A stretch of DNA of 43,761 nucleotides from Bdellovibrionales bacterium (GCA_043739185.1 JAYUEN010000221.1:1-43761); one strand, 5' to 3'. Shown: positions 1,456-40,274, counted from the stretch's first letter. Notes: generated by a model from the sequence alone, not told the origin. Numbers and translations are program-made.

Positions 1456-1482
1456 TTAATCCTTTTCTGAAAATTCCGATCG
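1456..1482 (+). promoter_or_regulatory. Sigma28 (FliA)-like promoter
   Basis: TTAA-N15-TCCGATCG, compared with consensus TAAA-N15-GCCGATAA; ends 22 nt before ATG 1505. Confidence 0.45.
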
Positions 1483-1504: not shown

Positions 1505-3175
1505 ATGTCATTTCAATATAAAAAAGATAAGTCCGGTGACGAATCAGGTATGCAATGGACATCGTATAGCGATTTGTTCATGTCCCTATCCGTTATCTTT
1601 CTATTAATGTATGTGACTGCAAGTCTAAAACAGGGCACGGCAAGTCTTCAACAAAACATTGAAAACACCAACCTGAAACAACAGCTCACAGATTTAAAAC
1701 AGCAAATCAAGGTCTATAATACTTTAAAAGAAGATTATATGACTGAGGACGCTTCGAAAGATGAGCAAAAGGCCTATCAGGAACTCATGGGCAAGCTCAA
1801 TCTTTTGCAAGACGATGCTAAAAACGAAAAAAATGCACTTCGACAAAAAGCGAAAGAAAATGAAGAAAAGGAAGTGGCACTTAATAAGTATCAAAAGTTG
1901 ATTTCAAACATCATCAATACCAATGTGCTTTCAAAAGCACAAATCAAGCGACGAGATAAGATCATTGTCAAAAAAGATGACATCATTTCAGAACGCCAAG
2001 TTGAAATTAAAAGTTTAGAGAGAACTGTGGCTGAAAAAAAGGCGGTCATCGAAAAAGGCAAAGCTGAAATTGCCGAAGTAAATACCGAACTCGAACAAAA
2101 AGTTAAAGAACTTACCTACGCATATAATAGCCACAATATTTCAAAGAAAAAAATGGAAGCTGAAAAAGAGCGCTTAAGAGAAGAAAATTCCGAAAAGGTT
2201 GCAGCTCTTCAAAAAGAGAATATTGAAGCCGCGAAGCAGCTTGGTCAGGTGAGCTCGACTCTCGAAACTGTTGAGTCACAACTTGAAAATACGAAATCCA
2301 ATCTTGAAAAAGTTGGAGAAGAAAAAGGCCGCTTAGCCAAAGAGCTTGAAAGTACCGAAGGAAAGTATGCGGCTCAAATGAAGGGTCTGCAAGAGTCCTA
2401 TGATCGAAAACGAGCCGCAGAAAAAGCCGCCTTTGATACCGAACTTCACAAGCACAAAATGTCGGCCGAAGCTAAGGCCAATCGTGAGGCTCAATTTAAA
2501 GCCGCTGCTGAACAAGAAGCAAAAGATTTGAAAGGGCAGTTGGCCGGACTTTCAAATAAAATGGCTGCTACCCAAGGCGAATTGACCAAAGCCCGCGCCC
2601 AAATTGAACAACGTAAATCACTTGCTAGAGACATCAAAGCAAACTTTGCTAAAAATGGGATTAAAGCCGACGTCGACCAAGCAACAGGAGATGTGGTGCT
2701 CGATTTCGGTACAGAGTATTTTGATACCGGAAAAGCCAGTCTCAAACCGGGCATGAGAAATATCATTGAGAAAGCAATGCCGATTTATTCACAAAGTCTT
2801 TTTGGCAACGAAAAGGTTTCTAAAAAAATCAAAGCTGTCGAGATCATCGGCTTCGCGTCGCCTACTTATCAAGGCAAGTATATTGATCCACAGAGCTTAA
2901 ATCCTGGAGATCGAACTGCGGTTGACTTCAATTTGGACCTCAGTTTCAATCGTGCCCGCTCGATTTTTAAGTATGTATTCGATACCAATAAAATGAACTT
3001 CAAATACCAACAGCAACTCCTTCCTCTTGTGAAAGTAACCGGAAGAAGTTTCTTGGCAGAGCGAAAAAATGCTCGTGATCTCGCATCCCCAAATATGACC
3101 CAAAAAGAATTTTGTGAAACCCATGATTGCTCTAAGGCTCAAAGAGTTATCATACGCTTTAATTTAGACGAGTAA
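1505..3175 (+). CDS. MotB/ZorB-like protein: N-terminal TM with Asp, long coiled coil, OmpA-like C-terminal domain
   Basis: WTSYSDLFMSLSVIFLLMYV (MotB/ZorB TM with Asp23). K/E/Q-rich coiled coil at ~aa 45-380. OmpA-like YFDTGKASL, VEIIGFAS, FNLDLSFNRA, QRVIIRF. AAGGA RBS. Confidence 0.8.
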   Translation: MSFQYKKDKSGDESGMQWTSYSDLFMSLSVIFLLMYVTASLKQGTASLQQNIENTNLKQQLTDLKQQIKVYNTLKEDYMTEDASKDEQKAYQELMGKLNLLQDDAKNEKNALRQKAKENEEKEVALNKYQKLISNIINTNVLSKAQIKRRDKIIVKKDDIISERQVEIKSLERTVAEKKAVIEKGKAEIAEVNTELEQKVKELTYAYNSHNISKKKMEAEKERLREENSEKVAALQKENIEAAKQLGQVSSTLETVESQLENTKSNLEKVGEEKGRLAKELESTEGKYAAQMKGLQESYDRKRAAEKAAFDTELHKHKMSAEAKANREAQFKAAAEQEAKDLKGQLAGLSNKMAATQGELTKARAQIEQRKSLARDIKANFAKNGIKADVDQATGDVVLDFGTEYFDTGKASLKPGMRNIIEKAMPIYSQSLFGNEKVSKKIKAVEIIGFASPTYQGKYIDPQSLNPGDRTAVDFNLDLSFNRARSIFKYVFDTNKMNFKYQQQLLPLVKVTGRSFLAERKNARDLASPNMTQKEFCETHDCSKAQRVIIRFNLDE

Positions 3176-3185
3176 GGAGATTTTT

Positions 3186-4133
3186 GTGAAAGAATTAGTG
3201 CAGCATTTTATTGATTTCGTTGCCAACTTTGCGGGCGAATACCTCGTATCGATTATCCTCTTTACTTTTGCAGCAGGATTTGCCGCCAGAGGCTTAATCT
3301 ACTACACGATTAAACGACACGAATGGTTTGCCAAAGAGTTTGAAAAACGCGTGGATCGCTATATTGACGATGCGACGACCACCAAATCTGAAGTCTCGTT
3401 TTATGTCTTGGCAAAACGTTTGCTAGAAAAAACTTACTACGAAGCTTTTGAATTGCGAGTCAAATTTAGCCGACGCAAGCCAGACAAAGTCATGCACTGG
3501 AGCGATCGCCTCTTCTTGATTAAACTTGGTTCCGCATGGATCGTTAAAGACACTTTAAAACAATTACGTCACCTCAAGTACAGCGCACAACAGCCAAAAA
3601 TTCTCAACGTAGCGAAGTCAACTTTGTTAAACAATCCGTGTTTCAATCGTCTCTTTGGGATTATGCCGATCTCGAGCCTCAATGATATCCTCAATATATT
3701 ACCAGGCCTGTTTGTTATCGGCGGAATTTTTGGTACCTTTCTTGGAATCATGAAGGGTCTACCCGAGCTCAGTGGAATGAATCTTTCAGATCCAGAACAA
3801 ACAAAACTTGTGATGGACGGATTCCTTTCAAATATTTCATTTTCAATGACGACTTCTATTGTGGGAATCTTGTGCTCCGTACTTATGAGCATCACCAATA
3901 CTGTTTGGTCGCCTGAAAAACTTTTTGCTACCATTATAGATCGTTTTGAAAATGCACTCGATATTCTCTGGAACCGAAGTGACAACAACAATACTCCAGA
4001 TGAAGACACTGAATTTGAAGACCGACGTGATGGCAATGAGGCTATTGCCGAAGCTGCCGTCAATCAAGAAACCAATCGACAACATCGCAAGCGCTCAATG
4101 GAAACTTTGCATAAGCCGAAAAAGGCCTCTTAA
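3186..4133 (+). CDS. MotA/TolQ/ExbB-family (ZorA-like) ion-channel subunit
   Basis: Three hydrophobic helices. PGLFVIGGIFGTFLGI and FSMTTSIVGI resemble the TM2/TM3 motifs of MotA/ExbB/ZorA. GTG start with AAGGAG RBS, 10 nt after the upstream stop. Confidence 0.75.
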   Translation: MKELVQHFIDFVANFAGEYLVSIILFTFAAGFAARGLIYYTIKRHEWFAKEFEKRVDRYIDDATTTKSEVSFYVLAKRLLEKTYYEAFELRVKFSRRKPDKVMHWSDRLFLIKLGSAWIVKDTLKQLRHLKYSAQQPKILNVAKSTLLNNPCFNRLFGIMPISSLNDILNILPGLFVIGGIFGTFLGIMKGLPELSGMNLSDPEQTKLVMDGFLSNISFSMTTSIVGILCSVLMSITNTVWSPEKLFATIIDRFENALDILWNRSDNNNTPDEDTEFEDRRDGNEAIAEAAVNQETNRQHRKRSMETLHKPKKAS

Positions 4134-4153
4134 AGAAAGCTTAGATGGGATAG

Positions 4154-6841
4154 ATGAAAGATACAAGTGGCACCGCCTGTCGAATAAAGATCACATTGGG
4201 AAATGAGACTCGTGAAGAACTCATCGACAGGACTGCCTTTACCATTGGTCGCGGCCGAGATGCCGACGTGCAAATTACCTCTCCCAATATTAGCCGCGTT
4301 CACCTAACAGTTGAAATTCGCAATGGCTCGATTTGGATAGCCGATTTTGGCTCAGCCAATGGTAGCTTTATCAACAACAAAGAAATTGCGCGCCACCAAG
4401 CAACGCTTTACCAACCTGGTGACAAAATCAAATTAGGAGAGGCAAAAGAACTCCTAACTCTTGAGATTCGAGAACCCTTAAGACTGGTAGTTCCCCCTGG
4501 TGAAATCAATCTTGATGATACTCAGCCAGAATATGATTTGCAGCTTCCTCCAACTCCAGCTGAAATTCCCTTACCACCCCCCATTCAGCGTGTTGCTGAA
4601 ATCGATCATTCTGCCGCCGAGCGAATTTTAAATCAGGCACGGGCACTTGCTTACCAATTGCGAGAGGCCGCTGAAATAGATGCTAAGAAAATTGCCGATA
4701 CCGCCCAGCTTCAGGCTCGAGAAACAATCGAAAAAGCGGATACAGATGTTCAAAAATCTTTAGCGAGTGCGAATGTCGAAGCTCAAAAGATCATCAGCTC
4801 GGCGCATTTGAGAGCTGAAGAAATCGACGCTCAAGCTAGGTTGCAATCGACTTACAAGCTCAAAGAAGCTGAAGAGGATACCAAAATCAAAGTCGAAGAA
4901 ATGCTAGACAATGCTAAAATTGCTGGTGAGAAAATCTTAGCAGAATTCAAACCTCGAGGTGAAAAACTCGTAACTGAAGCACGACAACAGGCCACGGCAA
5001 TCAAAACTGCTGCCCAAGAAGAGGCCGATAAATTACTACAAGAAACCTATCAAAAATGCACCAGTTCACAAATTTCATCTGAAGAGAAGGCCCATAAAAC
5101 GGCCGAAGAAGCCCACCAAAAGGCCGAATTCATTCTTCAAGAATCTCAGGACGAAGTGGACCAAATCTTAAAGGACGTAAAAGAATCTATTCGCAAAATG
5201 CGGCAAACCAATGAAAACGATTTATCCGAAATCAAACTTCAATCTGAAAAGAAAGCACAGCAGCGCCTCGATCAAGCTAAATTAGAGGCTGATAAAATAG
5301 TTTCACAGACAAGCTCTCAAGCAGACGCGCAAAAACAAAGTATTTTGTCGAAAGCCACTGAAGAAGCTAAAGAAATAGTCAATGAGGCTATTCGCAAATC
5401 AAAGCTCGCGGGACAAGAAGTCACTCGCACTTTTCATGAGGAACATTTTAAACTTGGCCAAACCCGCGAAACCTTAGAACGCGATGTTGCCCGTATCGGA
5501 CAAAAGCACACCGAAGTCGAAAAACAATTTTCTCTCAGAAATGAAAAACTAAATGGCCTCAATATTAAAATTGAAGCCGCCGAAAAATTGCTTGGCGAAA
5601 CCGAGCTTGCAAGTAAACAACGCGTATCAGACCTGCAATTTCGCATCTCTTCTCTTGAAGAAACTCTTGCCACCAAAGCAAAAGCGGTCGATGCATTGGA
5701 TTTGAGTGCAAAAGAAGCCTTAGAGCGCCGCCAGCAAGAAGAAGAAAATACGTTACGAATCAAGTCTGAATGTGAATTGATACTGAAAAAAGTCAATGAC
5801 CTCGAAACCCAAGAACGACAATTGGTCGAACGTTCTTCTTCGCTTGATAAGCAAATCAATCAAGAGCGCATTCGCTTAAAAGAAAACCTTGAAGCCCAAA
5901 TGGTCAATGAGAGAAAAGAAATAACCAGTGAAATAAAGCGACTCCGCGAACAATCGGTAGCGGATCACGCAAAACAGAAAATTGCTCAAGATGAAGAATT
6001 GGCAGTACTAAAAAGACGAGAACTTGAACTTATTAAATCTCTGCGTGCCGAAGCCGATGCCAAAGCCCGATTGGTGCGCAAACACAAAGCCATCGAAACC
6101 GCAAAAGCACTTGAAATTTACTTGACGCCAAAACTGCAAGAGGCCCTTAAGACACAAGTCTTACCAGAGAGTTTTCAAAACTTCTTTCAGGACATTACCG
6201 CCGTCCTCACCAATATGGTCGCTGAAGAAAATTCAAAAGAAGCGAGCAGCAGTGAAATCATGCATCCAGCCGCTTCGATTTCTGATTTTACCAATACTAA
6301 AAAACGAAAGCGCATTTTTATACATGCCGCCGGAATTTTCGTATTGCTTCTAGTCACGCTATTTTACTTGCAAGAAAAATATGGTGACCACAGAAGTGCC
6401 GCCGAAGTATTTGCTGAAGAGCTTCGCGAAAAAGAAGCAAAACGCCCGAAGTTTGTTCCTGAAATTACCAGCGACTACAAAACTTCGTACACAGATAATA
6501 TTATTTATACGGACACCTATGCGCAATTCAAATCGGATTCTCAAGCCCAAGCAAAATGGATACGAGATTTAAATAAATTTTTTATTAACAAATTAAATTT
6601 GAATGAAAACTCAGTGGTTAAATTCATTCCGGTTGAAAATGAGCTCGTTACGCAGTTGCAAGAGAAGCGAAATATTATTCATTTTGAAACCCAAGACGAT
6701 GATATCAAAGCCATGCGTGATATCGAGCAAACTTCTGTTGAAAAGCTCACAGAGGTTCTGGGCGGACATGCCAATTACAAAGCCTTTCGTGAATTTGAAA
6801 AAAATTACTTTCAACAAAATCGCATGCCCGCGAGCAAATAG
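4154..6841 (+). CDS. FHA-domain, long coiled-coil, single-TM protein
   Basis: Canonical FHA motifs IGR, SRVH, DFGSANG. Pro-rich linker, hendecad then heptad-like coiled coil, KKRKR followed by TM IFIHAAGIFVLLLVTLFYL, then a ~155-aa helical C-terminal domain. Confidence 0.85.
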   Translation: MKDTSGTACRIKITLGNETREELIDRTAFTIGRGRDADVQITSPNISRVHLTVEIRNGSIWIADFGSANGSFINNKEIARHQATLYQPGDKIKLGEAKELLTLEIREPLRLVVPPGEINLDDTQPEYDLQLPPTPAEIPLPPPIQRVAEIDHSAAERILNQARALAYQLREAAEIDAKKIADTAQLQARETIEKADTDVQKSLASANVEAQKIISSAHLRAEEIDAQARLQSTYKLKEAEEDTKIKVEEMLDNAKIAGEKILAEFKPRGEKLVTEARQQATAIKTAAQEEADKLLQETYQKCTSSQISSEEKAHKTAEEAHQKAEFILQESQDEVDQILKDVKESIRKMRQTNENDLSEIKLQSEKKAQQRLDQAKLEADKIVSQTSSQADAQKQSILSKATEEAKEIVNEAIRKSKLAGQEVTRTFHEEHFKLGQTRETLERDVARIGQKHTEVEKQFSLRNEKLNGLNIKIEAAEKLLGETELASKQRVSDLQFRISSLEETLATKAKAVDALDLSAKEALERRQQEEENTLRIKSECELILKKVNDLETQERQLVERSSSLDKQINQERIRLKENLEAQMVNERKEITSEIKRLREQSVADHAKQKIAQDEELAVLKRRELELIKSLRAEADAKARLVRKHKAIETAKALEIYLTPKLQEALKTQVLPESFQNFFQDITAVLTNMVAEENSKEASSSEIMHPAASISDFTNTKKRKRIFIHAAGIFVLLLVTLFYLQEKYGDHRSAAEVFAEELREKEAKRPKFVPEITSDYKTSYTDNIIYTDTYAQFKSDSQAQAKWIRDLNKFFINKLNLNENSVVKFIPVENELVTQLQEKRNIIHFETQDDDIKAMRDIEQTSVEKLTEVLGGHANYKAFREFEKNYFQQNRMPASK

Positions 6842-6853
6842 TTTGCCGCTAAA

Positions 6854-8161
6854 TTAATTATTCTGCTGATTCTTTAATAGAGCCGAAAAGGGCGAATTTT
6901 GATTCACAACTGAAATGTGAAATAGAAAGTCCGGCGGCTCATGTTGCAAAATTGTATAGAGCAGATAACCTGGCGTGATACCATTGTAGCCTGAAAGTGA
7001 CGGATTGCTTGGTTGGTTTCCGTTTGCATCGAGTCCTTGTAGGTCCCAACTGTTTTTGAAAACGGCTCCTGCAAATGCCGCATCTAAGGTCCGTGTATTT
7101 TCAATCAGTACCAAATGTCCACCGGCCAACTTCACCTGGCCCTGTAGTACTAAGTCAGAAGAAGCAACACCTGAGCTTTGAAAACCCTGCTGATTGTAAA
7201 TAGCAAAGCCCACAGGAACCGGAATAGGCTTGGGAAGGGTGAGACTCGCTTGAATGGCGCTTTCTAAAAGCTTTTGATTAGCTGAGGTCATTTGAACATC
7301 GACAAAACTATTCGGATCAAATTGTGCCACACTCTTCATAAAACTAAGCGGTGTATAACTATTCCCATCCGTATGTACAAACTGATCATTTGGACGATAA
7401 GGTAAATGTTTATTCGCAGATGAAGCATTGAGTACCGGACTCAATTTATCCGTCATCAGTTGATAAAGCGGAGTATTGATTCCATCAGAATCTACTCCAT
7501 TAAAAATGCTTGTACGATTGGGCGCATTTAAAATACTGCCAACTAAATCTTTTAAACTGGCAACAAGTGTCAATGCTTGATTATTTGAAGTGATGGGACG
7601 ATCAAACAAAGTTTGCGGAACCAAACCAATTAACTTTGCTTCGTTTAGAGCCGTCGGCTCATCACTGCCAGAGTGCACCACAAATTCAGCCTGAGCTGCC
7701 GCTCTTGAATTTGGACGCAATCTCATCATGAGCACAGCTTCGAGACTTGCCTCTTCGAGAGAAATTTCTCCGCGCTTAACTCTGCCAGCTAGTTTTGCAA
7801 AATACATTGGATGTTCTTTTATTTGAAAATAAAAATGCCAAAAACCATTGTGATCCGGCGAAGTTTCTAAAGTAACACCGGTATTGGTATGCAGATTTTG
7901 ATCAACCAATTCATTGAAACCATAGGCCCAGCAGATTTCAGCATATTTTTGATTCAGAATTTTAGAGCCCGGAGCAATTCCGCCATTAACAAGCGGAGTT
8001 GCTTTTTGAAAACTACTCAAATCTGCTGAAATCTTTGAAGCGTTACCCGAATATCTTACAAAGCCATCAATGCATTCGTCGCCATTTGCAAAAGAATTCA
8101 AAGCTAAAAACGAAATACTTGCGAATGCAACAACCGATAAGAACTTTGAAGTCTTTCTCAT
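6854..8161 (-). CDS. Secreted papain-like (clan CA, C1-like) cysteine peptidase
   Basis: Signal peptide ending SFA. NQKYAEICWAY (oxyanion Gln, catalytic Cys-Trp), GGHLVLI (His) and FKNSW (Asn) occur in papain order. Confidence 0.7.
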   Translation of the reverse strand: MRKTSKFLSVVAFASISFLALNSFANGDECIDGFVRYSGNASKISADLSSFQKATPLVNGGIAPGSKILNQKYAEICWAYGFNELVDQNLHTNTGVTLETSPDHNGFWHFYFQIKEHPMYFAKLAGRVKRGEISLEEASLEAVLMMRLRPNSRAAAQAEFVVHSGSDEPTALNEAKLIGLVPQTLFDRPITSNNQALTLVASLKDLVGSILNAPNRTSIFNGVDSDGINTPLYQLMTDKLSPVLNASSANKHLPYRPNDQFVHTDGNSYTPLSFMKSVAQFDPNSFVDVQMTSANQKLLESAIQASLTLPKPIPVPVGFAIYNQQGFQSSGVASSDLVLQGQVKLAGGHLVLIENTRTLDAAFAGAVFKNSWDLQGLDANGNQPSNPSLSGYNGITPGYLLYTILQHEPPDFLFHISVVNQNSPFSALLKNQQNN

Positions 8162-18294: not shown

Positions 18295-19767
18295 TTAATC
18301 GAGAGCTTTAAACAAGAAGGGATAAGAAACTTTTACCATGGTGCCACCCTTTGGCTGCGGAAACTTCCAGTTCGAAAGTCTGCGAAGCATACAGCCTTCA
18401 ACCATCGAGCTCTTCATCGTTGAGTTTTCAACCTTGGGTTCGATCACTCCGCCTTGAGAGTTGATGACAAATTTCACCAGGACTTTTCCGTACAAGTCGC
18501 GGTTGGCCGACAATTGGCGCTCGTAACATTCACGAACCTGACCAATATTTTTCTTTATAATTTCGGCGATCACATCTTTGTCTAGGCCACCATCAATGAC
18601 GGTTTCGTCATCAATCAAAGCAACGTCGCCTTGACCAACTCGGCCGCCAGTTAAGGCTGTGCCTTCACCAATATTCGAAGCACCGCCCCCAACTCCCTTG
18701 GTCGCAATGCCACCAAGCTTGAAGCTAGATCCTGCTTTAGCTGCAGCTCCGCCCCCGCCAACGGTAGCTGTTCCGGTTGAGAAGAAGGCGCGGCCAGAGG
18801 CTTTTTCAGGAGCGACTCCGTTAGCCGCAATCATGATTCCCGATTTCGCAGCACGTTTGGCAATTTTTCCGATGAGTGAGTTCAAACCGGATGCGCGAAG
18901 ATTATTTAGTGCCGCTGTGGTTTTGTTTGAAACTTTTGGAGCTTGGGATTGATCGGGAGCCGGCTGAGCTGTGGTCGCGACCACTGGTACTTCGGATCCG
19001 CCACGTTTTGCACCAGCAGCAATTTGAATTTTCTTACTTTCACTACGTTTTTTCATAATGGCTTTGGCGTTGAAAATGATATCCATCGATTTTGCGTCGA
19101 GATTTTTTCCGGAAGTCGAATTCGGAGCCAATTTGATTCCTACCCAAAGAACAGCAAATATCATGATCACAACTGCCAAGGGCTTAGCAAAATCGCGGTC
19201 AATTTCGAAATCAGGTTTATGCATAACCTCTTGCTCAGGCACCAATCTCTGCTGAATCACTCTTCGTCCCAATTCGCTCACCACCCAGTTGGCACTTGTT
19301 GGTGGCGGAAGTTTAATTTCAGTTTCACCGTCTCGCATATGCAAGTGGGCGTTTTTCTCAAGAATAAGTGTCTCAACAATTCCCCAGCCTCTGCGAATAA
19401 TAACTTGTTGTTTGGTGTTTTCGCCCGCAATTAGTTGATTGGTAAAAAGCTTTTGATTCTTGGGCCGATTGAGTAGGCGAATCTCATGATTGCCAATGGT
19501 TAATACATGGCGATTATCTAACTTTTGCTCAACTATATTTTTTTCGTCTAACAAGGTCTCCTCTGAGCCACTCAAATCACAGGCATACCAGTGAGGAGCG
19601 CGGTATTTCAAAACCATGTGGCAGCCGGCAACCGTTTGGCCGTTGATTCTCAAATCAGCGGATTTACTAGAGCCGATCAAGAACAAATTTGATTTTGCTT
19701 GAATGCGAAGGTGCTTTTTTATTTTTTTACCTTCGATATGTTCTAAAATTAAATCAGGGGCTGCCAT
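18295..19767 (-). CDS. FHA-like/TM/TonB-like (AgmX/PglI C-terminal) protein, GltG-like
   Basis: Degenerate FHA (IGSSKSADLRI...CH), one TM, Gly-rich linker, and C-terminal GGLDKDVIAEII...VRECYE...GKVLVKFVI...FPQP...VSYPFLF. Confidence 0.85.
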   Translation of the reverse strand: MAAPDLILEHIEGKKIKKHLRIQAKSNLFLIGSSKSADLRINGQTVAGCHMVLKYRAPHWYACDLSGSEETLLDEKNIVEQKLDNRHVLTIGNHEIRLLNRPKNQKLFTNQLIAGENTKQQVIIRRGWGIVETLILEKNAHLHMRDGETEIKLPPPTSANWVVSELGRRVIQQRLVPEQEVMHKPDFEIDRDFAKPLAVVIMIFAVLWVGIKLAPNSTSGKNLDAKSMDIIFNAKAIMKKRSESKKIQIAAGAKRGGSEVPVVATTAQPAPDQSQAPKVSNKTTAALNNLRASGLNSLIGKIAKRAAKSGIMIAANGVAPEKASGRAFFSTGTATVGGGGAAAKAGSSFKLGGIATKGVGGGASNIGEGTALTGGRVGQGDVALIDDETVIDGGLDKDVIAEIIKKNIGQVRECYERQLSANRDLYGKVLVKFVINSQGGVIEPKVENSTMKSSMVEGCMLRRLSNWKFPQPKGGTMVKVSYPFLFKALD

Positions 19768-19770
19768 GCT

Positions 19771-20289
19771 TTATTCCTTTGTCATCACTGCAATTTTAAC
19801 ATCTGAATAGCCAGCTAACATTGAGGTATACATAACCTTTCGAAGCAAAGTATAAGAAAGATCGCGGTCGGCTTGCATTACCACTTTACCATCAAACTCT
19901 ACGGTCTCGTTTTGTTTTGCAATGTCTTTTGATTTTGTAGCCTGAGCATCGAGCGCATCGTAAAGTGCCCGAATAAAATTCACGTCTGTTGAATCGAGAT
20001 CTTTACTTTCGAGTTTACCTTGATTGATGTCGACAATTTTTTTGTCGTCTACAAAAATGCCGGTTTTACTCACGACCAGTTTGAGCGCATCGACGGGATC
20101 TTTGGTGCTCGTACTCGCGGGCAAAGTGAGATCTGCGCTCGGATTGATATTCACTGGTGAAGTCGAATAGCTTTTCAACAGGAATACTAAGAGAATGACA
20201 AACATATCAACCATCGAAGTGATTTGAATCTTAAAGGTTGAAGGTGCTCTTTTATCCATAAATCTTGCGAAGCCACGTCTGCGAATCAT
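19771..20289 (-). CDS. aglS: ExbD/TolR-family gliding motor subunit (AglS-like)
   Basis: IQITSMVDMFVILLVFLLKSYS (TM Asp) and QADRDLSYTLLRKVMYT. Confidence 0.8.
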   Translation of the reverse strand: MIRRRGFARFMDKRAPSTFKIQITSMVDMFVILLVFLLKSYSTSPVNINPSADLTLPASTSTKDPVDALKLVVSKTGIFVDDKKIVDINQGKLESKDLDSTDVNFIRALYDALDAQATKSKDIAKQNETVEFDGKVVMQADRDLSYTLLRKVMYTSMLAGYSDVKIAVMTKE

Positions 20290-20291
20290 TT

Positions 20292-20828
20292 TTAGCCCCC
20301 TGCTACATTTCCGAAAACCACATCAGGAAAGATCAGTTCGGTTTCAACTTTTTTACCACTTTCGACATCGGTAAAATAAATCTTAGGATCGTCCTTTGAG
20401 CGATTGCGAACTTTGTCCATGATGGCAACAATTTCACTTAAATCGACATTTTCTTCAGGATGTAATTCAAGCCTAAAACTGTCTGGATATTGCGATTTGA
20501 GATCAATCATTTGGCGATGTAGTCCCGCCAAATCAAAGGCCTTATTTTTAAGAGCAACATTAAGCTGCTTCGACCTGCCTTTGCCATCGATGCTAATTTG
20601 AAACCCTGAAGATTTTGAAATCCCGAGCGTAATTTGCGTATCATCTTTCTTATCTTGATTGACGATAGCTTTTTGTACGGCCTGCGGAACCGGAGTTTCA
20701 ACCATAGTAATTTGTACGAAAACCACACTCAACAGGAGCATGGGCACAATCGACACAATGATATCTAACAAGGGCGCCAAATTCAATTCGAAGGTGGCAT
20801 CTTCAGTTCTCGATTTATACGCTCTCAT
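20292..20828 (-). CDS. ExbD/TolR-family gliding motor subunit (AglQ-like)
   Basis: ELNLAPLLDIIVSIVPMLL (TM Asp), IVAIMDKVR, LIFPDVVFG. Confidence 0.8.
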   Translation of the reverse strand: MRAYKSRTEDATFELNLAPLLDIIVSIVPMLLLSVVFVQITMVETPVPQAVQKAIVNQDKKDDTQITLGISKSSGFQISIDGKGRSKQLNVALKNKAFDLAGLHRQMIDLKSQYPDSFRLELHPEENVDLSEIVAIMDKVRNRSKDDPKIYFTDVESGKKVETELIFPDVVFGNVAGG

Positions 20829-20857
20829 AAATACCTCAATTGAAAATTTCTAAAAGA

Positions 20858-21565
20858 TTAAGCCGATTTACTTGGAGCACTGGGGATCTTAACTTTTTTC
20901 TCGGCAGTTGCAGTGAAGGCTGTGGCTGCGCTGAAGCCATCAAAGCCGCGGCTTCTCAAGAGCTCAATTGTCTTCGCTGCATTTTGATCAATCTCAGAAA
21001 AAAGACGTCCTTGCTTTGCGTGCAAGAAAGAATAGATCACCATCACCGGAATAGCCACTAAGAGTCCCATGGCCGTAGAGTGCATCGCAAGTGAAATACC
21101 ATCGGCAAGTAAAGTTTGCTTTTGCGATGGATCTGCAAAACTCACGGCTTTAAATGACATAATCAAACCCACAACGGTCCCCAGCAAACCAATCAAGGTC
21201 ACCACATTTGATATCATTGCCAGATATGATAAGTTCTTTGCAAGTTTTGGCGCCATCTCAGAAGCGGCAATATCAAGTGAATGATCAATGGCTCCATCAT
21301 CGCGGTCGGATTTTTCAAGAATTCTTTTTACCACATAAGCTAAAGGCTTTTTCTCATTAGCAGAACAATATGTGATGGCTTCATCAACCTTATCTTCTTC
21401 AACCATCTTAATGACTTTGGCAATGAAGACTTGGGCATTGATCGAATAGTCAAAATACAGGGCTTTCACGCGCTCTGAAATGAGCGCAAAGCCGAAGGCC
21501 CCCATTCCCAACATGGCGACATCGAGCAATTGATGATCGACTACGAACTTTAAAAATGCATCCAT
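20858..21565 (-). CDS. aglR: MotA/TolQ/ExbB proton-channel subunit (AglR-like)
   Basis: TLIGLLGTVVGLIMSF and GISLAMHSTAMGLLVAIP; GGAGG RBS; lies upstream of two ExbD genes. Confidence 0.85.
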   Translation of the reverse strand: MDAFLKFVVDHQLLDVAMLGMGAFGFALISERVKALYFDYSINAQVFIAKVIKMVEEDKVDEAITYCSANEKKPLAYVVKRILEKSDRDDGAIDHSLDIAASEMAPKLAKNLSYLAMISNVVTLIGLLGTVVGLIMSFKAVSFADPSQKQTLLADGISLAMHSTAMGLLVAIPVMVIYSFLHAKQGRLFSEIDQNAAKTIELLRSRGFDGFSAATAFTATAEKKVKIPSAPSKSA

Positions 21566-21593
21566 TTGGAGCCTCCCTTAAAAAATTTTAAAT

Positions 21594-22490
21594 CTATTTA
21601 CCTGCGAACATCCAGCCGGGTTGGGTTTTGTGGGCGAAATACTCGTGCAAAGTATTTTTCAACTTTTTATCGAGACCCACAAATTTCACTCCATAGGGAA
21701 CAGGTGTCTTTACACTTTTTAATTCTCTAACAAATTTTTTACTTACTATTTCTGCCGCCACATTAAAGGCATTGAGCCCATCGTGAGAAGCAAAATGCAG
21801 CTTCACTGTTTGACCTGGCTGAAGAGTCGCGTTTTGAATGATCAATCCTGATCCGCCCTCGCCGCCTTGAAAGGCTTGTCCCATCCATAAAGCTTGATCA
21901 TCATGCACCATCACTTCGTTCATAAAAGTAATGCGCTGGTGTTCTCTCTTTTTGAAAACGCTTTTTGCTTTTGGATGCAAAACCAGCTCTCTAATGTTCT
22001 CGACTGAGAACTCGGGGTGTTCGGCAATTCGAATCCACTCGCCCATGCCTTCTTTCCAAATAAATTCAAAGTCAAAAACTTTTTTTTCTTGAAGGGCCTT
22101 AACCACCCCAACTGAAGTGAGTGGGCCAAAGCGATGTGATTCCTTTTGAATAAACCAACTTTCACTAAGCGACGGACTAGCATCCGATTGCAAATTCGCA
22201 ATTTCTTGTTCGGGCACTATTTGAGCCGCCGCTTTTTCTTGTGCTGGCTTAGGGGATGCGGATTTATTTGGTGGCGCTATTTTTGGCTTAAACTCTTTTG
22301 CAATGAAGTCGAGTAAGACTTGATGTTTATTGAGCTCAATCCAATCGGCCGCATCATCATCGTAAATGAAGTCGGTGGTGATGAGCTGTTGCATCGAAAG
22401 ACGTCTGGCAATTTCTTCAATTGTCCACGGCCCGATGTGCTGACCAAGATGAGAAACGAAATATTCTTTTTGTTTGAGTGCTGCTTTCAT
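21594..22490 (-). CDS. Tandem GYF_2 (DUF4339)-like domains plus PilZ-like domain
   Basis: YFVSHLGQHIGPW...W and WFIQKESHRFGPL...IWKEGMGEW; REHQR (RxxxR); YGVKF PilZ terminal strand. Confidence 0.8.
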   Translation of the reverse strand: MKAALKQKEYFVSHLGQHIGPWTIEEIARRLSMQQLITTDFIYDDDAADWIELNKHQVLLDFIAKEFKPKIAPPNKSASPKPAQEKAAAQIVPEQEIANLQSDASPSLSESWFIQKESHRFGPLTSVGVVKALQEKKVFDFEFIWKEGMGEWIRIAEHPEFSVENIRELVLHPKAKSVFKKREHQRITFMNEVMVHDDQALWMGQAFQGGEGGSGLIIQNATLQPGQTVKLHFASHDGLNAFNVAAEIVSKKFVRELKSVKTPVPYGVKFVGLDKKLKNTLHEYFAHKTQPGWMFAGK

Positions 22491-29834: not shown

Positions 29835-29857
29835 GGGCCTCAATATTATTGGGGCCT
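29835..29857. terminator. Hairpin between convergent genes
   Basis: GGGCCTCAAT/ATTGGGGCCT stem including G-U pairs on the + strand. Confidence 0.5.
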
Positions 29858-30566
29858 ACTGAAAACATTCTTGCGACAAGAAACCCGAGCCTTTTTTATG
29901 AAAGGCCTTATACCAATCCCCTGTTTGCTCCACCCACAATTTCTTGGCACCTTTAACTACCAATATCTGTGGGCTCGCTTTGTCTGTATCCGCATACATC
30001 ACACAGTCGCCGCCATTGGTGGTCTTAAAGCCTTGTTTGAATTGAACCGATGCCGAGCCTCGTTCGGCCTCTTGCTTTGGCTTTGGCTTCATTTTAACTT
30101 GGAGCTCGGCCGCGGGCGGTTCCTCAGTGGGAACGACTTCAGTATTTGTAGCCATTTTCCCATCAGGGTTCTCTGCTTTCGACATATCTTCAGATTTTTT
30201 CAAAACCTTTGCCGGCGTCTTCTTTTCGGCAGCCGGCGCTTGCGCTGCTTCTGGGTTTTGCATTTGATCAAAAGCATCGCCCTTAGTTCCGGTCGCAGCT
30301 TGATCGTCATCTTCCTCATTGGTAGCAGGGACTCTTGGTTTTTTTGAATCCTTGCCCTTTGACTTCTTCGCACTCACCTTATTTTCAGGCGCAGCCTCTG
30401 GCAATTTATCAATCTCAACTCTTGGCATTTCGTAGTCTGCCTCACCCTCGTCTAAAAAAACATTCGAAGCACCGCCAGAAGACTTTTCTTCAGCTCTCAA
30501 TGCATGATGAAAAATAAATACTGCAAAAGCGGTCCCAAAAATCACAATCCATAGTTTTGCGTTCAT
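29856..30566 (-). CDS. Secreted, largely disordered protein with C-terminal SH3b-like domain
   Basis: Signal peptide; charged/Ala/Pro linker; CVMYADTDKASPQILVVKGAKKLWVEQTGDWYKAFHKKGSGFL resembles SH3b; GGAG RBS before ATG 30566. Confidence 0.65.
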   Translation of the reverse strand: MNAKLWIVIFGTAFAVFIFHHALRAEEKSSGGASNVFLDEGEADYEMPRVEIDKLPEAAPENKVSAKKSKGKDSKKPRVPATNEEDDDQAATGTKGDAFDQMQNPEAAQAPAAEKKTPAKVLKKSEDMSKAENPDGKMATNTEVVPTEEPPAAELQVKMKPKPKQEAERGSASVQFKQGFKTTNGGDCVMYADTDKASPQILVVKGAKKLWVEQTGDWYKAFHKKGSGFLSQECFQ

Positions 30567-30611
30567 GAGTATCTCCATCCCAACTTGAAATCTCAGTTTG
30601 ACCCAGTTTTC

Positions 30612-30638
30612 CTATCGGAATCTCAGTCCAGAACGTTA
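30612..30638 (-). promoter_or_regulatory. Sigma28-like promoter
   Basis: Minus strand TAAC-N15-TCCGATAG. Confidence 0.55.
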
Positions 30639-30833
30639 AGGCTAGGTGCTACAATTTGTTGGCGGTTTTTGGGACATTTTTTTGGAACAAAACTAAGGGC
30701 AATATGCAAAAGTCGCTTCAATGGTTTGCTTTTTTTCTTTGTTTTTAAGCACTTTAGACCTATCCTAATCTATGTCGAGTTTAACTTGACCAAGGATGCA
30801 ACCTAGAAAGCTGAGGACCTTCCGACGAAAACC

Positions 30834-32462
30834 TTGCTCTTTCCGTTTAATAAAAACTTTGATCTCAGCCAGTTCTTTCGTCTAGAAAATATTGTCGAAG
30901 GTGCTCAGCCTAACTGCAGCTCATTTGTTTCTCGCCATGATCCTCACAATATCGAAATTAAAACCGTATTTGAAATTGCCAATGGTGCTTTTGAAAGCGA
31001 GCTTGATGTCTATCTCTTTGTGCCGCGAAATTTTGGCATTAAGCTAGAAGATCGGCTAGATCTTTTAAAGGATATTCGCGCCCGACTCAAACTCTCAGTA
31101 CCTTTTCACGGAGACCAAAACAATCAAGGATTAAAAGAAATTCTCATTCGACTTCAAAAATCAGTAGATCAATGTCGTGATCCCTCTTTAGAGATGCTTG
31201 GGAATGAACAAGATGCTCAAGCCGCAGATATCATGGTTGAAGAGGCAAGAGATCTTTGCGCCCTTGTGACCGAAAGCTTTAAGCAATCGGCAAATGAACT
31301 TTCAAAACAAGTTTTTTTAAGTCATAACCTTTTGAGCAATATTCATTCGACCGTCAAGAGTCTCAATGAACTTGAAGGACAATTGCATAAAAAATCCGAA
31401 ATTATGAATGAAGTTCGGAATGTCATTGTTACAAATTCAAGTCCGCAAATTCTCAAGCTGCTCAATGAGTTTTTGAGCTATGTTTATATTCAATATCTGG
31501 CTGCGGTGAGATTTGAGTTGGATAGCACCGAACTCACAGAAGAAGTGAAGTCCAACCTAGATTACCAGTCGGCTCGTAGTAAATTAGAAATTTGCATGAG
31601 TGAACTTCAAGAGAAAGAAGCAGCTCACCGTTACCGCGTCGGATTGCGATTCGATCCCGAAGAAACTGAAAAAGAACGCGAACTTCGTTTGATGAAGCTC
31701 AGCCATTTGAAAAAGTTTTTTCAATCTAAAAGTTTTGTAGATTTCACGACTAAAAATAATGTTAAAAGAATACATGAAACTCTAGCCACTTTGGGAACAC
31801 TACTGGCTGCGCTTGCTGTTGCCGGTCTTGAAAGTTTTAAAGATTCAGGCGCAACGCAAGTCACTTTTAAGGGTCTTTTCCTTTTGAGCTTCGGGGTCAT
31901 TGCCTACGTTTTGCGGGATCGCTTAAAGGATTGGACTAAACAATTATTAAATAAGAAAGCCAGCGCTTATATTCCGGACGTTGAAAATAATCTTTGGGCA
32001 CAAAATAAAAAGATGGGTTTTGTTCGCGAATGGTTGCGAGTTGAAAGTAAGAAATCAATTCCAATGACTATATCCGTAAAACGCCAAGGTGTTGAAGGCA
32101 GCGATCTTGAGAAAGCTCTAGCCGAAGATGTCCTTCACTATCGAAAAATTCAAAATATTTCAAGACATGCTTCTGATTTCAAATCGCACTCTGGCGTGAG
32201 TGCTGTTCACGAAAATTTAAGGATCAATCTTGCGCGCTACCTCAAACATATGGATGATCCTTATAAAGATTTGGCAGAGTTAGATGCCTGGGGCGCAATT
32301 AAGAAAAGTAAATCAAGAAGAGTTTATCATTTTTATGTCTGTGTTAACCTCAAATACAGTTCGACCAAAGCTCATCACAGTTCCGCACCTGTTCATGAAC
32401 AACTGGTGATTTCAAGAGTTGTTATGGATAAAAATGGCGTGGTACGCGTTGAAGAAACTTAA
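30834..32462 (+). CDS. Hypothetical membrane protein (large soluble domains around a 2-TM hairpin)
   Basis: 542-aa ORF; hydrophobic segments LATLGTLLAALAVAGL and GLFLLSFGVIAYVL; start uncertain. Confidence 0.75.
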   Translation: MLFPFNKNFDLSQFFRLENIVEGAQPNCSSFVSRHDPHNIEIKTVFEIANGAFESELDVYLFVPRNFGIKLEDRLDLLKDIRARLKLSVPFHGDQNNQGLKEILIRLQKSVDQCRDPSLEMLGNEQDAQAADIMVEEARDLCALVTESFKQSANELSKQVFLSHNLLSNIHSTVKSLNELEGQLHKKSEIMNEVRNVIVTNSSPQILKLLNEFLSYVYIQYLAAVRFELDSTELTEEVKSNLDYQSARSKLEICMSELQEKEAAHRYRVGLRFDPEETEKERELRLMKLSHLKKFFQSKSFVDFTTKNNVKRIHETLATLGTLLAALAVAGLESFKDSGATQVTFKGLFLLSFGVIAYVLRDRLKDWTKQLLNKKASAYIPDVENNLWAQNKKMGFVREWLRVESKKSIPMTISVKRQGVEGSDLEKALAEDVLHYRKIQNISRHASDFKSHSGVSAVHENLRINLARYLKHMDDPYKDLAELDAWGAIKKSKSRRVYHFYVCVNLKYSSTKAHHSSAPVHEQLVISRVVMDKNGVVRVEET

Positions 32463-32623
32463 TTCAGTTGGTCTTCTACACTAGAAATCAAATCAGTTTT
32501 AACGGCAGCAGCGGCCGTCAACCGTTTGCCAGTTTCGGTAGGCAGATTTCAGTGGGATCCAGACTCTGATTCTGGATCAGCTGCTGTTGACTGATTCCTG
32601 AATTCCAGCTGCCGAACGCTGAA
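32463..32623. ncRNA. Candidate structured non-coding RNA, family unrecognised
   Basis: Nested inverted repeats in an intergenic region that is more GC-rich than the other spacers (details in findings). Confidence 0.4.
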
Positions 32624-32646
32624 GTTTTCACTACTTTACCAAGCGG

Positions 32647-32683
32647 AAGAAGAAAGAACTCAAGATGTTTATTATCTTGAGTT
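32647..32683 (-). terminator. Intrinsic terminator of the coiled-coil gene
   Basis: Perfect 10-bp stem AACTCAAGAT/ATCTTGAGTT (32657-32683) followed by CTTTCTTCTT on the minus strand. Confidence 0.7.
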
Positions 32684-32684
32684 A

Positions 32685-33404
32685 CTAATCCAAACTCAAT
32701 TCATCTGAACTCGAACCAATTGAACTCAATTTGTTCTTAGCCGAATTTGATCGGGTTTGATTTTGAATTTGAAGACGCTCGGTTTGTGCCTGTAATTTGA
32801 CGACACTCGATTTCAATCGATAAACCTCGGCCACTTTACTTACTCTGCGCTTATCTATATTTTTCTTTATGCGTTGCTCGCGCTGAAGAAGGGCCGTCAA
32901 CTGACGCTCTTGTTTTAAAAGATCTTTGCGTTGCTGTTCTACTTGTCCAAGAGATTCTTTCGCTTTTTTTGTACGCTCTTCGGCTTTGGCTTTTTGATCT
33001 CGCACTTTCTCGAGGCGCTTTTCTAAAACTGAAACTTCTTTTTGTTCTTTAGCTAAAATCTGCTCAAAACGTCTGGCTTGCTTTTCAGATTCAAATTTTT
33101 CTTTTTTGGTAACATTATAACTTTCAGAAGATCGTTTTGCCCTTTTTTCTGCCTCGAGTTTTTGATTTTTGAGGCGAGAAATTTTATTCTTTAAACCGTT
33201 AATATCTTTATTGAGCTGACGTGTTTCAATATTGGTTTGCGTAGCGTAGTCGTCATAAGAATAGCCCTCGACTTCTTCAACTTGTGAGTCCATTCGCATT
33301 TGTTCAACTTGATCGTCTTTGTCAGTTAAATTCGAAGCGTAAAGTTTTGACGATACCGCCAAACACATCCCCAAAATAATAGATAATAACAACGCCCGTT
33401 TCAT
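32685..33404 (-). CDS. Secreted basic coiled-coil protein
   Basis: GGAGG RBS; signal peptide MKRALLLSIILGMCLAVSSKLYA; long K/E/Q/R-rich helix. Confidence 0.8.
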   Translation of the reverse strand: MKRALLLSIILGMCLAVSSKLYASNLTDKDDQVEQMRMDSQVEEVEGYSYDDYATQTNIETRQLNKDINGLKNKISRLKNQKLEAEKRAKRSSESYNVTKKEKFESEKQARRFEQILAKEQKEVSVLEKRLEKVRDQKAKAEERTKKAKESLGQVEQQRKDLLKQERQLTALLQREQRIKKNIDKRRVSKVAEVYRLKSSVVKLQAQTERLQIQNQTRSNSAKNKLSSIGSSSDELSLD

Positions 33405-33433
33405 AAATGCCTCCATAGTCTACTGCGCATTTG

Positions 33434-38765: not shown

Positions 38766-38780
38766 CTTGCTCTTACCCTC

Positions 38781-40025
38781 TTAAAAAAACATCGTTAACC
38801 ACAACTCATTGGTGGTTATATGTGGCATATTTGTTCCTGCAATCGTATCTGAAAATTCAAAACTCGCGATGAATGGCATAAAGCTTTCTTGCTTAAAGTA
38901 AGACTGAACCGTGCTATATGCTAAGCCAAACTTTACGAGCTGATAAGTCGAATTTGTTCCCGCATCTAACATCGCATAGTCATAAGGCATCGACCCACTG
39001 AAGCGATCAGCAGCTTTACTTTGAAATTCTAAGCCCCCGGACAATGCAAGCCTTGAAAAAATCTCGTAGGTCGCAGAAACTCCTGCGCCTCCGGCATCAC
39101 CAATTTTGCGATCGAGCTTTTCGGTTTGATCTTGCGCAGGTAAACTATCATTTGCATCTAGAGGCACTCGCTTTTCAACTTTATCGGCCAAATTGTAGTG
39201 GTAAAAAACCTTTGCAGCCAGAGTGAGTGGACCAAAAACGCGATAATTAAAAATGATTTGTTGCTCAATAGAACTTTGCCCTGAGTTATCCAATGCCGCC
39301 AAATCATTTGGATCTGCCTGGGGACCTGTGGGTAATCCTATCATAGTCTTTGAAAGTAATTTGAATCGATCGCTTTTATAAAATTGATAAAGACTGGCGA
39401 TCTGAACATCTCCAACAAATTCGCGATCGCTTTGTCCTATTGGCTGATAACCCAGGCTACTCAAAGTTTGTTGAGCTTGGCTCACCAAATTTACTTTGAG
39501 AGAACCAAAGGCACCATTGAGTTGCGGTGAGGAGTAACCGACTTGTGCATGTATGGCGTCGATATTCGAACCAGTAGATTCAAGTCCGACACTGTTTTGA
39601 TAATGAATGACGGGTGCTCCAATAGCTAGAGTCCAACGATCTGTCATTCCTCTGGCAAATACCGGCGCATAGTAATTTACTTGCGGCTGAATATCGAACT
39701 TGAGATATCCTAGGTTGATTTTGTCCCCAAGCTTTTGTGATCCAAACTGATTGAGCGCAGAAACAAGCTGCGCAACCTGGGGTTGGAGCGCGATCAATTT
39801 CTGGGCGTCAAAACCCATGGTATGAACATCACCCAAGGACTGAAGAGCTCCATCGGATCCGTACTCCTGACCAATCCCGCTCACTATTCCGATGCGAATC
39901 GAAGGGCTATATATACCTTTCGGCAAAACATCGGCCGAATCCATCGCGAAACTCGATTTGGGAGCCAAAATTTGAAACCCAAAAGTCGCGACGAGAATCA
40001 ATTTTCGGATCTTAAAAGCCTTCAA
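38781..40025 (-). CDS. Probable outer-membrane beta-barrel protein
   Basis: Signal peptide from TTG 40025 (MKAFKIRKLILVATFGFQILAPKSSFA); VGDVQIASLYQF and IGLPTG resemble MetA-pathway/SphA-type channels; terminal LWLTMFF. Confidence 0.65.
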   Translation of the reverse strand: MKAFKIRKLILVATFGFQILAPKSSFAMDSADVLPKGIYSPSIRIGIVSGIGQEYGSDGALQSLGDVHTMGFDAQKLIALQPQVAQLVSALNQFGSQKLGDKINLGYLKFDIQPQVNYYAPVFARGMTDRWTLAIGAPVIHYQNSVGLESTGSNIDAIHAQVGYSSPQLNGAFGSLKVNLVSQAQQTLSSLGYQPIGQSDREFVGDVQIASLYQFYKSDRFKLLSKTMIGLPTGPQADPNDLAALDNSGQSSIEQQIIFNYRVFGPLTLAAKVFYHYNLADKVEKRVPLDANDSLPAQDQTEKLDRKIGDAGGAGVSATYEIFSRLALSGGLEFQSKAADRFSGSMPYDYAMLDAGTNSTYQLVKFGLAYSTVQSYFKQESFMPFIASFEFSDTIAGTNMPHITTNELWLTMFF

Positions 40026-40102
40026 AAATGATATGTCTTGAAATGAATAGGCTCTCAATTTGGCTCTCTTTGAATTGGTTTTTCTGGGACGCGAAAGATC
40101 AC

Positions 40103-40119
40103 TGCGATTTCGAGGCCAA
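40103..40119 (-). promoter_or_regulatory. Sigma54-like promoter
   Basis: Minus strand TTGGCCTCGAAATCGCA = GG-N10-GC. Confidence 0.45.
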
Positions 40120-40274
40120 TTTTTTGGCCATGAATGTCTTTGTTCCGGTATTAGCAAAACTCATTTTTAGGACCCTATATTATTAATAATTGTGCTAAAT
40201 TCGTTTTCAATTTAGAGTAATTAAGTCATTTCTCTCTTAGCCTTTGAAATATTTTTAATCCTGGGTGACCAAAA

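Follow-up and report, generated by a model that had tools for sequence, protein, structure and literature searches.

Introduction

Ion motors of 5:2 stoichiometry drive flagella, gliding, outer-membrane uptake, cell division and, in the case of ZorAB, phage defence. What kind of motor, then, is encoded by three genes near one end of a stretch of 43,761 nucleotides (nt) from a Bdellovibrionales bacterium (GCA_043739185.1, JAYUEN010000221.1:1-43761; the whole stretch is called the window below)? The three genes, here called B, A and F, are co-oriented with gaps of 10 and 20 nt, and an earlier note, made from the sequence alone, had read them as a Zorya-related ion motor in which a separate FHA/coiled-coil membrane protein replaces the long tail of ZorA. 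We find that the B-A pair is a new form of ZorAB-type motor, that the family is not Zorya, and that the pair is an old core which F joined in one clade, together with a new motif in the tail of A. The features concerned are as follows (aa, amino acids; TM, transmembrane).

1456..1481, + strand: candidate sigma-28 (FliA)-like promoter, TTAA...CCGATC, by comparison with the consensus, 24 nt 5' of the start of B
1505..3175, + strand: gene B, ZorB-like, 556 aa, orthologue of Bd1167 (PADLOC ZorB1, E 2.5e-28)
1556..1627, + strand: TM helix of B with the predicted ion-carrying Asp23 (codon 1571-1573), aligned to WISYADL of ZorB in 8QYD
1637..2605, + strand: predicted periplasmic stalk of B, ~325 aa (heptad period 3.54-3.56, above shuffles)
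2606..3172, + strand: OmpA-like, predicted peptidoglycan-binding domain of B with a CxxxxC pair (profile and alignment)
3186..4133, + strand: gene A, short-tailed ZorA-like subunit with three TM helices, 315 aa, orthologue of Bd1168 (profile, model and alignment)
3999..4076, + strand: tail motif of A, consensus FDEHRDPxEALAE, predicted docking helix for F (profile score against F adjacency)
4154..6841, + strand: gene F, FHA, hendecad coil, heptad coil, TM helix and periplasmic domain, 895 aa, orthologue of Bd1169
4241..4438, + strand: FHA domain of F, residues 30-95 (Pfam PF00498, E 1.4e-16)
4601..6013, + strand: cytoplasmic coil of F, with 11-residue repeats (150-420) and then 7-residue repeats (420-620), by periodicity
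6317..6838, + strand: TM helix of F and a conserved all-helical domain of 150 aa, predicted to be periplasmic (predicted local distance difference test, pLDDT, 88.6)

A predicted ZorAB-type motor with B before A

The motifs quoted in the earlier note are all present, namely WTSYSD with D23, F475-N476-x-x-L479-S480-x-x-R483 and G449-F-A-S in B, and PGLFVIGGIFGTFLG and MTTSIVG in A. The tight spacing and the order are as it described. Of 103 A rows examined, near-duplicate genomes included, 101 have B immediately 5' of A, an arrangement that is beyond chance.

For gene A, profile, fold and tree all point to ZorA. PADLOC assigns the protein to ZorA1 (E 1.9e-8), and a profile of its orthologues has ZorA 8VVN and 8QYH as best solved relatives (E 1e-7). 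An AlphaFold2 model (pLDDT 78.6) contains three TM helices; ZorA takes the top four places in Foldseek and the top five in VIA (8QYH: Z 12.0, root-mean-square deviation 3.9, 204 aligned residues), above ExbB (Z 10.3) and TolQ (Z 9.3), although for helical proteins a VIA Z under ~13 is weak and counts only alongside sequence evidence. A quick tree built on TM2-TM3 (76 rows and 135 columns; long-branch warnings apply) places the family and ZorA on one side of a branch with 96 in the Shimodaira-Hasegawa-like approximate likelihood ratio test (SH-aLRT), and MotA with seven of nine rows labelled TolQ/ExbB/AglR on the other; seven of nine ZorA rows form their own group. A motor related to Zorya, and neither flagellar MotAB nor canonical Zorya, is thus what these results support; of the label MotA-like that had been given to A, the three TM helices hold, but ZorA-like is the better name, Pfam MotA_ExbB being unmatched. 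In the ESM Atlas, the A orthologue of Bdellovibrio bacteriovorus lies near Bdellovibrionota and PF28082 (ZorA-like_t1) clusters, and because one of the latter is of 294 aa, short ZorA-like proteins exist elsewhere too.

For gene B, the best PDB sequence matches are ZorB 8QYD (E 1.3e-5, with a profile of orthologues) and ZorB 8VVI, and the C-terminal domain profile matches ZorB 8VVI at E 1.5e-10 and MotB 6YSF at E 3.5e-3. A weak Pfam OmpA match is found in 41 of 46 family members; neither whole B nor whole A has a Pfam match, and MotB_plug (PF13677), MotA_ExbB (PF01618) and PF02472 are unmatched. N476, L479, S480, R483, C537 and C542 are invariant in 46 aligned B sequences, and the position of F475 is Y in most homologues. 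Between these ends lies the stalk, a conserved neck (about residues 45-150) followed by a variable heptad coiled coil, with a total length of 246-1501 aa among 89 homologues; heptad periodicity and length agree with the placing of the long coil on B.

The ion path is conserved in both proteins. P136, I144, T147 and S184 of ZorA align to P173, I181, T184 and S224 of A, of which T184 and S224 are invariant in 58 aligned sequences, and D26, Y151, N152, L155 and R159 of ZorB align to D23, F475, N476, L479 and R483 of B. All five of these ZorB residues, together with ZorA T147 and S184, are needed for Zorya function (PMC11946911). The TM Asp is kept in 93 of the 93 B proteins in which the N-terminal motif was found (8 of 101 were unscored).

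The solved ZorA5B2 cores of types I and II (PDB 8QYD/8QYH, 8VVN, 8VVI; PMC11946911, PMC11890865) share with this family the A fold of three TM helices, the Thr/Ser filter and the TM Asp, and ZorAB is also alike in its OmpA-like wall-binding residues, the Cys pair of the C-terminal domain and the lack of a MotB plug. Nevertheless, the differences are substantial. Zorya has the order zorAB, whereas B comes before A here. Long tails, of several hundred residues, occur on ZorA in all Zorya subtypes (PMC11946911), whereas the tail of A has a median of 75 aa (range 62-141 in 63 F-clade proteins), close to the ~70 aa that had been claimed. The wall-binding domain of ZorB is fused without a linker, and sensing has been proposed to depend on the distance between membrane and wall (PMC11946911), in contrast to the long stalk of B. 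Finally, the B-A pair has no ZorC, ZorD or ZorE beside it and forms a phase-regulated operon with a third gene that encodes a signalling domain. In Zorya, truncation of the tail or loss of any gene abolishes defence, and depolarisation was not seen (PMC11946911, PMC11890865). PMC12505986 regards ZorAB as remotely homologous and leaves it out of its tree; the B-A family is not described in the sections consulted.

The family is independent of ZorC and ZorE. NCBIfam Zorya models match B and A far below their cut-offs (e.g. 31.5 against 250 bits). Across the phylum, the ZorC domain occurs in 2 of 301 genomes and A (E<1e-25) in 123 of 301, and the ZorC family was found in 7 of 121 genomes of the order. 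In the genome of the window (97.65% complete) there is no ZorC or ZorE match, a result to be read with silent ZorC controls and with a genome-wide search that did not include ZorD. None of 36 window proteins scanned against Pfam is a flagellar protein or Zorya effector, in agreement with the earlier note; 14 further window proteins had no PADLOC match at the thresholds used, and among 134 proteins that flank the pair at 36 loci there was no match to ZorC, ZorD or ZorE at E<=1e-15. Twelve of these 134 do match PADLOC at E<=1e-15 through helicase, AAA activator, protease and exonuclease domains, which look like shared housekeeping domains, although no background rate was measured. Canonical Zorya is present in the order and stands apart from the B-A locus within the same genomes (G009, G027), and the positive controls, loci L089 and L130, score as ZorA-D in PADLOC. 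Type I-like Zorya in the order D-A-B-C was seen at L130:63-7005 and L132:462-7290, in genomes that also have a B-A pair.

With MotAB and PomAB the family shares the predicted 5:2 principle and a single-TM B with Asp and an OmpA-like domain; it differs from MotAB in lacking PF01618 and PF13677 matches and in its separate branch of the tree, and the A model, with three TM helices and with ZorA foremost among the listed folds, suggests a difference from the four-helix MotA fold. Three true MotAB pairs, at which PF01618 and PF13677 do match, lie elsewhere in the genome of the window. A flagellar link was considered and is ruled out, since B-A-F is intact in genomes without a FliG_C match (G037, one contig and 99% complete; G257; G092). 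Three flagellin genes stand 3' of A in two loci of one genus. ExbBD-TonB, TolQR-TolA and AglRQS-GltG are alike in their 3-TM A subunit and co-encoded single-TM partner, but B has an OmpA-like domain and no ExbD/TolR domain (PF02472), and F, with its predicted cytoplasmic long coil, has no TonB_C domain. The TM motif of TonB and TolA is SHLS, whereas the TM helix of F has no invariant His. Only in layout do we compare the clutch and brake proteins YcgR and MotI, as cytoplasmic signal readers on the A ring, and GldLM, with its long dimeric periplasmic arm on the B-type subunit; homology is not claimed.

The third gene

That the third gene encodes an FHA/coiled-coil/TM protein is confirmed by the Pfam FHA match, the periodicity and a single TM helix near residues 722-740. 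The G-R, S-x-x-H and N-G pocket motifs of the FHA domain are all kept in F, with G32 in 100%, R33, S47 and H50 each in 93% and N69 in 91% of 60 homologues. These are the residues that read phospho-threonine, and the intact predicted pocket makes F a putative phospho-threonine reader. In residues 150-420 the period is 3.68 (power 3.38 against a shuffled 95th percentile of 1.09), and the coil has weak NCBIfam matches to Scy, Wag31, FliH and V-ATPase H, none of them anywhere near its cut-off. The predicted periplasmic domain has no Foldseek match at E<=0.001 and no Pfam family; its best VIA Z is 7.3, within background, and its best ESM Atlas score is 0.76. A complex prediction of A(1-302) with F(615-895) scored 0.00, but the controls were unfolded, the alignments imperfectly row-paired, and the FHA domain and upper coil excluded, so that the score counts neither way. 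The genome of the window has five Hanks-type kinase motifs. In B. bacteriovorus, the Ser/Thr kinase Bd3148, induced ~42-fold in the attack phase and needed for predation (W 0.003; PMC6561027 supplement), is a candidate source of phospho-Thr for FHA proteins.

How closely is F tied to the motor? Its periplasmic domain occurs in 86 of 301 phylum genomes, and 84 of 90 matches are directly 3' of A. F follows A in 82 of 83 A matches at E<1e-110, as expected from the proposal that the third gene is conserved with the pair, then in 2 of 19 at 1e-110 to 1e-60 and in none of 29 at 1e-60 to 1e-25. In this most distant band, 14 of 15 fetched B-A loci have instead, 3' of A, a stand-alone 150-aa protein of the type that binds cyclic nucleoside monophosphates (cNMP), the exception being L119; the A of this sister clade carries a different conserved tail helix. 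Locus L103 has a receiver-like protein as third gene, named from its sequence alone, and the remaining B-A loci have no third gene nearby.

In a quick tree of A without its tail (72 rows, after removal of 31 loci that were redundant, truncated or unpaired; rooted on the cNMP clade), 43 F-bearing A proteins lie on one side of a branch (SH-aLRT 99). With this root, F was gained once. Since B-A pairs exist without F, and the A proteins that have F fall in a single clade, F was recruited later and is not a split-off ancestral tail. The suggestion that F substitutes for the ZorA tail therefore survives in so far as F is kept with A in the clade of the window, and fails as an ancestral replacement. 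No A-F fusion was seen among the 150 best representatives of 50% clusters, none of which carried F or B domains, and the longer A tails among them are Pro/acid-rich and not coiled; a search for longer A homologues, weak by the tool's own note, returned nothing.

With a profile trained on F-bearing loci, the tail motif of A reaches 10.8 bits or more in 61 of the 62 A proteins that have F next to them, and does not exceed 1.8 bits in any of the 35 that lack it. A motif that tracks F in this manner suggests a docking site for F. In the single-contig genome G222 (L109, L110), F lies ~0.9 Mb from B-A, still near FtsY, and the A tail motif is kept (53.7 bits). Paralogues of F with FHA domain, coil, TM helix and the same periplasmic domain (540-600 aa; L111:4900-6528, L112:4605-6266, L113:4495-6300) were found away from any motor, in a conserved neighbourhood of one genus, two of the genomes having no A match.

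Orthologues in Bdellovibrio bacteriovorus

As the earlier note had supposed, homologues exist as Bdellovibrio genes for which we found no description as a motor. Bd1168 measures 906 nt, which fits the 301-aa A orthologue P0088 (accession CAE79081.1, presumably that of strain HD100), and gaps of 12 and 0 nt match. The order in B. bacteriovorus Bd5 (locus L011; regulator, acetyltransferase, B, A, F, three open reading frames (ORFs), FtsY, epimerase) matches Bd1163-Bd1175 (PMC2797640 supplement), and a published promoter sequence matches the DNA upstream of the Bd5 locus (PMC3627812). Because gene order, length, gaps and promoter agree, B, A and F are Bd1167, Bd1168 and Bd1169. The orthologues are mis-annotated, as microtubule-binding, hypothetical and Ala/Glu-rich proteins; B is the "microtubule binding protein" that has been called crescentin-like (PMC2797640). 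The Bd1167-1169 tags are unnamed in PMC12034629; one Bdellovibrio paper has tags from the range Bd1165-1170 in its main text. In a literature search outside which most subscription journals lay, no account of this family as a motor was found. Fenton et al. (2010), on Ccrp, may mention Bd1167, so that a deletion may already have been published.

The three genes form one operon with a single attack-phase transcription start site (PMC3627812 supplement). Their reads per kilobase per million (RPKM) are 932, 1354 and 527 against 35, 23 and 14, in columns that we read as attack and growth phase (PMC3627812), and on prey entry they change 0.64-, 0.64- and 0.81-fold (PMC2797640). All three proteins were detected (41, 16 and 52 peptides; PMC12546842 supplement), and their abundance varies together, with a drop of 0.7-1.2 log2 units to a minimum at 3-4 h and a return by 6 h (PMC12546842). 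In strain 109J, insertions in EP01_RS15535/15540/15545, which we matched by annotation and gene order, have W of 1.5-2.0 under four prey conditions. Most neighbouring genes behave alike, whereas genes whose disruption impairs predation have W below 0.1 (PMC6561027, Data Set S2). A role needed for predation, one of the possibilities raised at the outset, is thus not supported.

Upstream of B, the FliA-like candidate is to be compared with the consensus TTAAG-N16-CCGATA (PMC3627812). A sigma-28-like -10 element stands 5' of B in 45 of 92 loci, where shuffles give 8.6 expected, and before 135 of 1385 first-in-unit ORFs of the genome of the window (9.7%); the 92 loci include kin and are not independent. 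The frequency of this element suggests that attack-phase control is conserved across clades. A universal FliA promoter for the operon is ruled out, since the HD100 promoter is listed without a FliA site (PMC3627812 supplement).

What the motor may do

As an account of function we tentatively prefer, with a confidence somewhat short of even, a signal-switched, wall-anchored B-A motor that does mechanical envelope work in free-living attack-phase cells. A and B would assemble as an A5B2 proton-driven rotary motor, and the long stalk of B would tether it to the cell's own peptidoglycan, so that it works on the envelope instead of recruiting anti-phage nucleases. The third-gene protein would dock on the short, clade-specific tail helix of A as a clutch, brake or anchor and bring a signal-reading domain with it, FHA here, cNMP-binding in the sister clade and receiver-like in one locus; for F, co-transcription and the co-occurring tail motif are the two grounds on which we couple it to the motor. 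If F keeps A in place, torque would wind up the stalk of B and put it under tension, pulling the inner membrane tight against the wall. At the textbook value of 0.15 nm per residue for a straight coil, stalks of 246-340 aa correspond to 37-50 nm. The gap between membrane and wall is ~9 nm in Escherichia coli (PMC11946911), and because a stalk of at least 246 aa (~37 nm) far exceeds it, B would reach the wall at all times; the distance trigger of Zorya would then not apply, and a switch from the cytoplasm would be needed. What favours a cytoplasmically switched motor is that every one of the clade-specific partners is a signal reader.

A bolder version, which we consider improbable, is that a Zorya-lineage motor was domesticated across the phylum and became a periplasmic winch that is switched by signals. 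The FHA arm, anchored in the membrane, would hold A while A twists a coiled-coil stalk of 40-220 nm fixed to the wall and so sets the membrane-to-wall tension in hunting cells, phospho-Thr and cyclic-nucleotide readers being interchangeable clutches on the tail of A. If true, 5:2 ion motors would gain a new task, and the Zorya family its first branch outside defence. Whatever its task, the B-A family is a widespread, expressed branch beside ZorAB without the long tail or the linker-free wall anchor, both thought essential to Zorya; its signalling partners are swapped between clades; it bears on whether ZorAB is derived from, or the source of, a housekeeping motor; and Bd1167-1169 are non-essential genes in a genetically tractable model predator.

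Several observations weigh against mechanical work under a cytoplasmic switch. No phenotype backs a mechanical job, the 109J insertions being neutral; of 75 genomes from the same order 22 lack the operon, among them single-contig members of a genus in which 18 of 20 have it, and such patchiness also fits defence genes; expression in the attack phase fits exposure to phages equally well. The switch is not universal, because many homologous pairs have no third gene nearby, and the association between tail motif and F is a single evolutionary event, scored with a profile from F-bearing loci.

Some of these facts would suit a defence device for the exposed attack phase, in which the motor senses attack on the envelope by phages or rivals and triggers an effector elsewhere or opens an ion leak. 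The nearest relatives are indeed Zorya motors, but no ZorC, ZorD or ZorE adjoins the pair, ZorC is rare in the phylum, canonical Zorya occupies a separate locus in genomes with both, and Zorya with a truncated tail or missing gene loses defence, and no depolarisation was observed in Zorya (PMC11946911, PMC11890865). The losses in complete genomes and the expression outside prey speak for defence, as does the neutrality of insertions in laboratory predation free of phages (PMC6561027), whereas no relative of the operon was found in viral contigs or plasmids. Of 9 copies of the sister clade's cNMP third gene, 2 resemble Pycsar PycTIR in its cNMP domain (E about 2e-16). The PADLOC-matching neighbours look like housekeeping proteins. 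On this evidence a defence device is rather unlikely, if a serious possibility.

If F were a bolted-on substitute for the ZorA tail, the motor might be an envelope sensor from which F relays the signal inward, its FHA tip gathering phosphorylated partners at a pole. The cytoplasmic coil of F, ~600 aa, is near the ZorA tail in length and directly 3' of A in nearly all close homologues, the tail motif persists in G222 despite the relocated F, and the hendecad repeats are weakly like those of the polarity scaffolds Scy and Wag31. But F was a single later gain, the pair persists without it, F-like proteins stand away from any A in 6 of 90 matches, no fusion with A was seen, and the long stalk removes the distance trigger; we regard a sensor of this kind as unlikely. 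Very unlikely, in our estimate, is that B is mainly a wall-anchored periplasmic coiled-coil skeleton, that A merely anchors or gates it, and that rotation does no work. The crescentin-like annotation (PMC2797640), the sixfold variation in stalk length and degenerate copies without the Asp would suit a skeleton, but the retention of Asp23, T184 and S224 across the whole main family implies that ion flow is under selection, and the curvature of HD100 has been attributed to the hydrolase Bd1075 (PMC8938487).

Neighbouring genes and divergent copies

The operon has a GC content of 41.5% (genome 41.8%) and is mostly single copy. The closest named relative is a Bdellovibrionales metagenome-assembled genome (MAG), with 87% identity in A. 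Neighbours are conserved no further than the genus. Upstream is a LysM protein (92-1240, - strand), and ORFs without a Pfam match lie at 6854-8161 (- strand), 29856-33416 and 36090-40157 (435, 240, 542, 243, 891 and 458 aa). At 18295-22490 (- strand), preceded by a GYF_2/PilZ protein, are an AglR/ExbB-like gene, two ExbD-like genes and a GltG-like FHA-TM-TonB_C gene (18295-19767; layout FHA, TM, periplasmic domain), probably a second motor operon of gliding type with an FHA membrane partner.

Elsewhere, a MAG titled Bacillota (L010, JBLMWG010000105.1) has the operon at Bdellovibrio-like identity and is probably mis-binned or mis-labelled. Degenerate B-A paralogues at L091:43-2579, L092:419-2710 and L093:3795-6852 have a B without the TM Asp, and in L091 and L092 also without the OmpA-like domain; the tail of their A is long, rich in Pro and acidic residues, and closes with a short coil, and they are possibly motor-dead. 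The A homologue at L050:5443-7902, whose tail is long and acidic, has no B directly upstream, and its true start is probably near residue 286 of the ORF. In the cNMP clade (L051-L056, L068, L116-L118, L120-L123), the GE...RTA cassette looks intact, and B reaches 1780 aa (L055:7416-12758).

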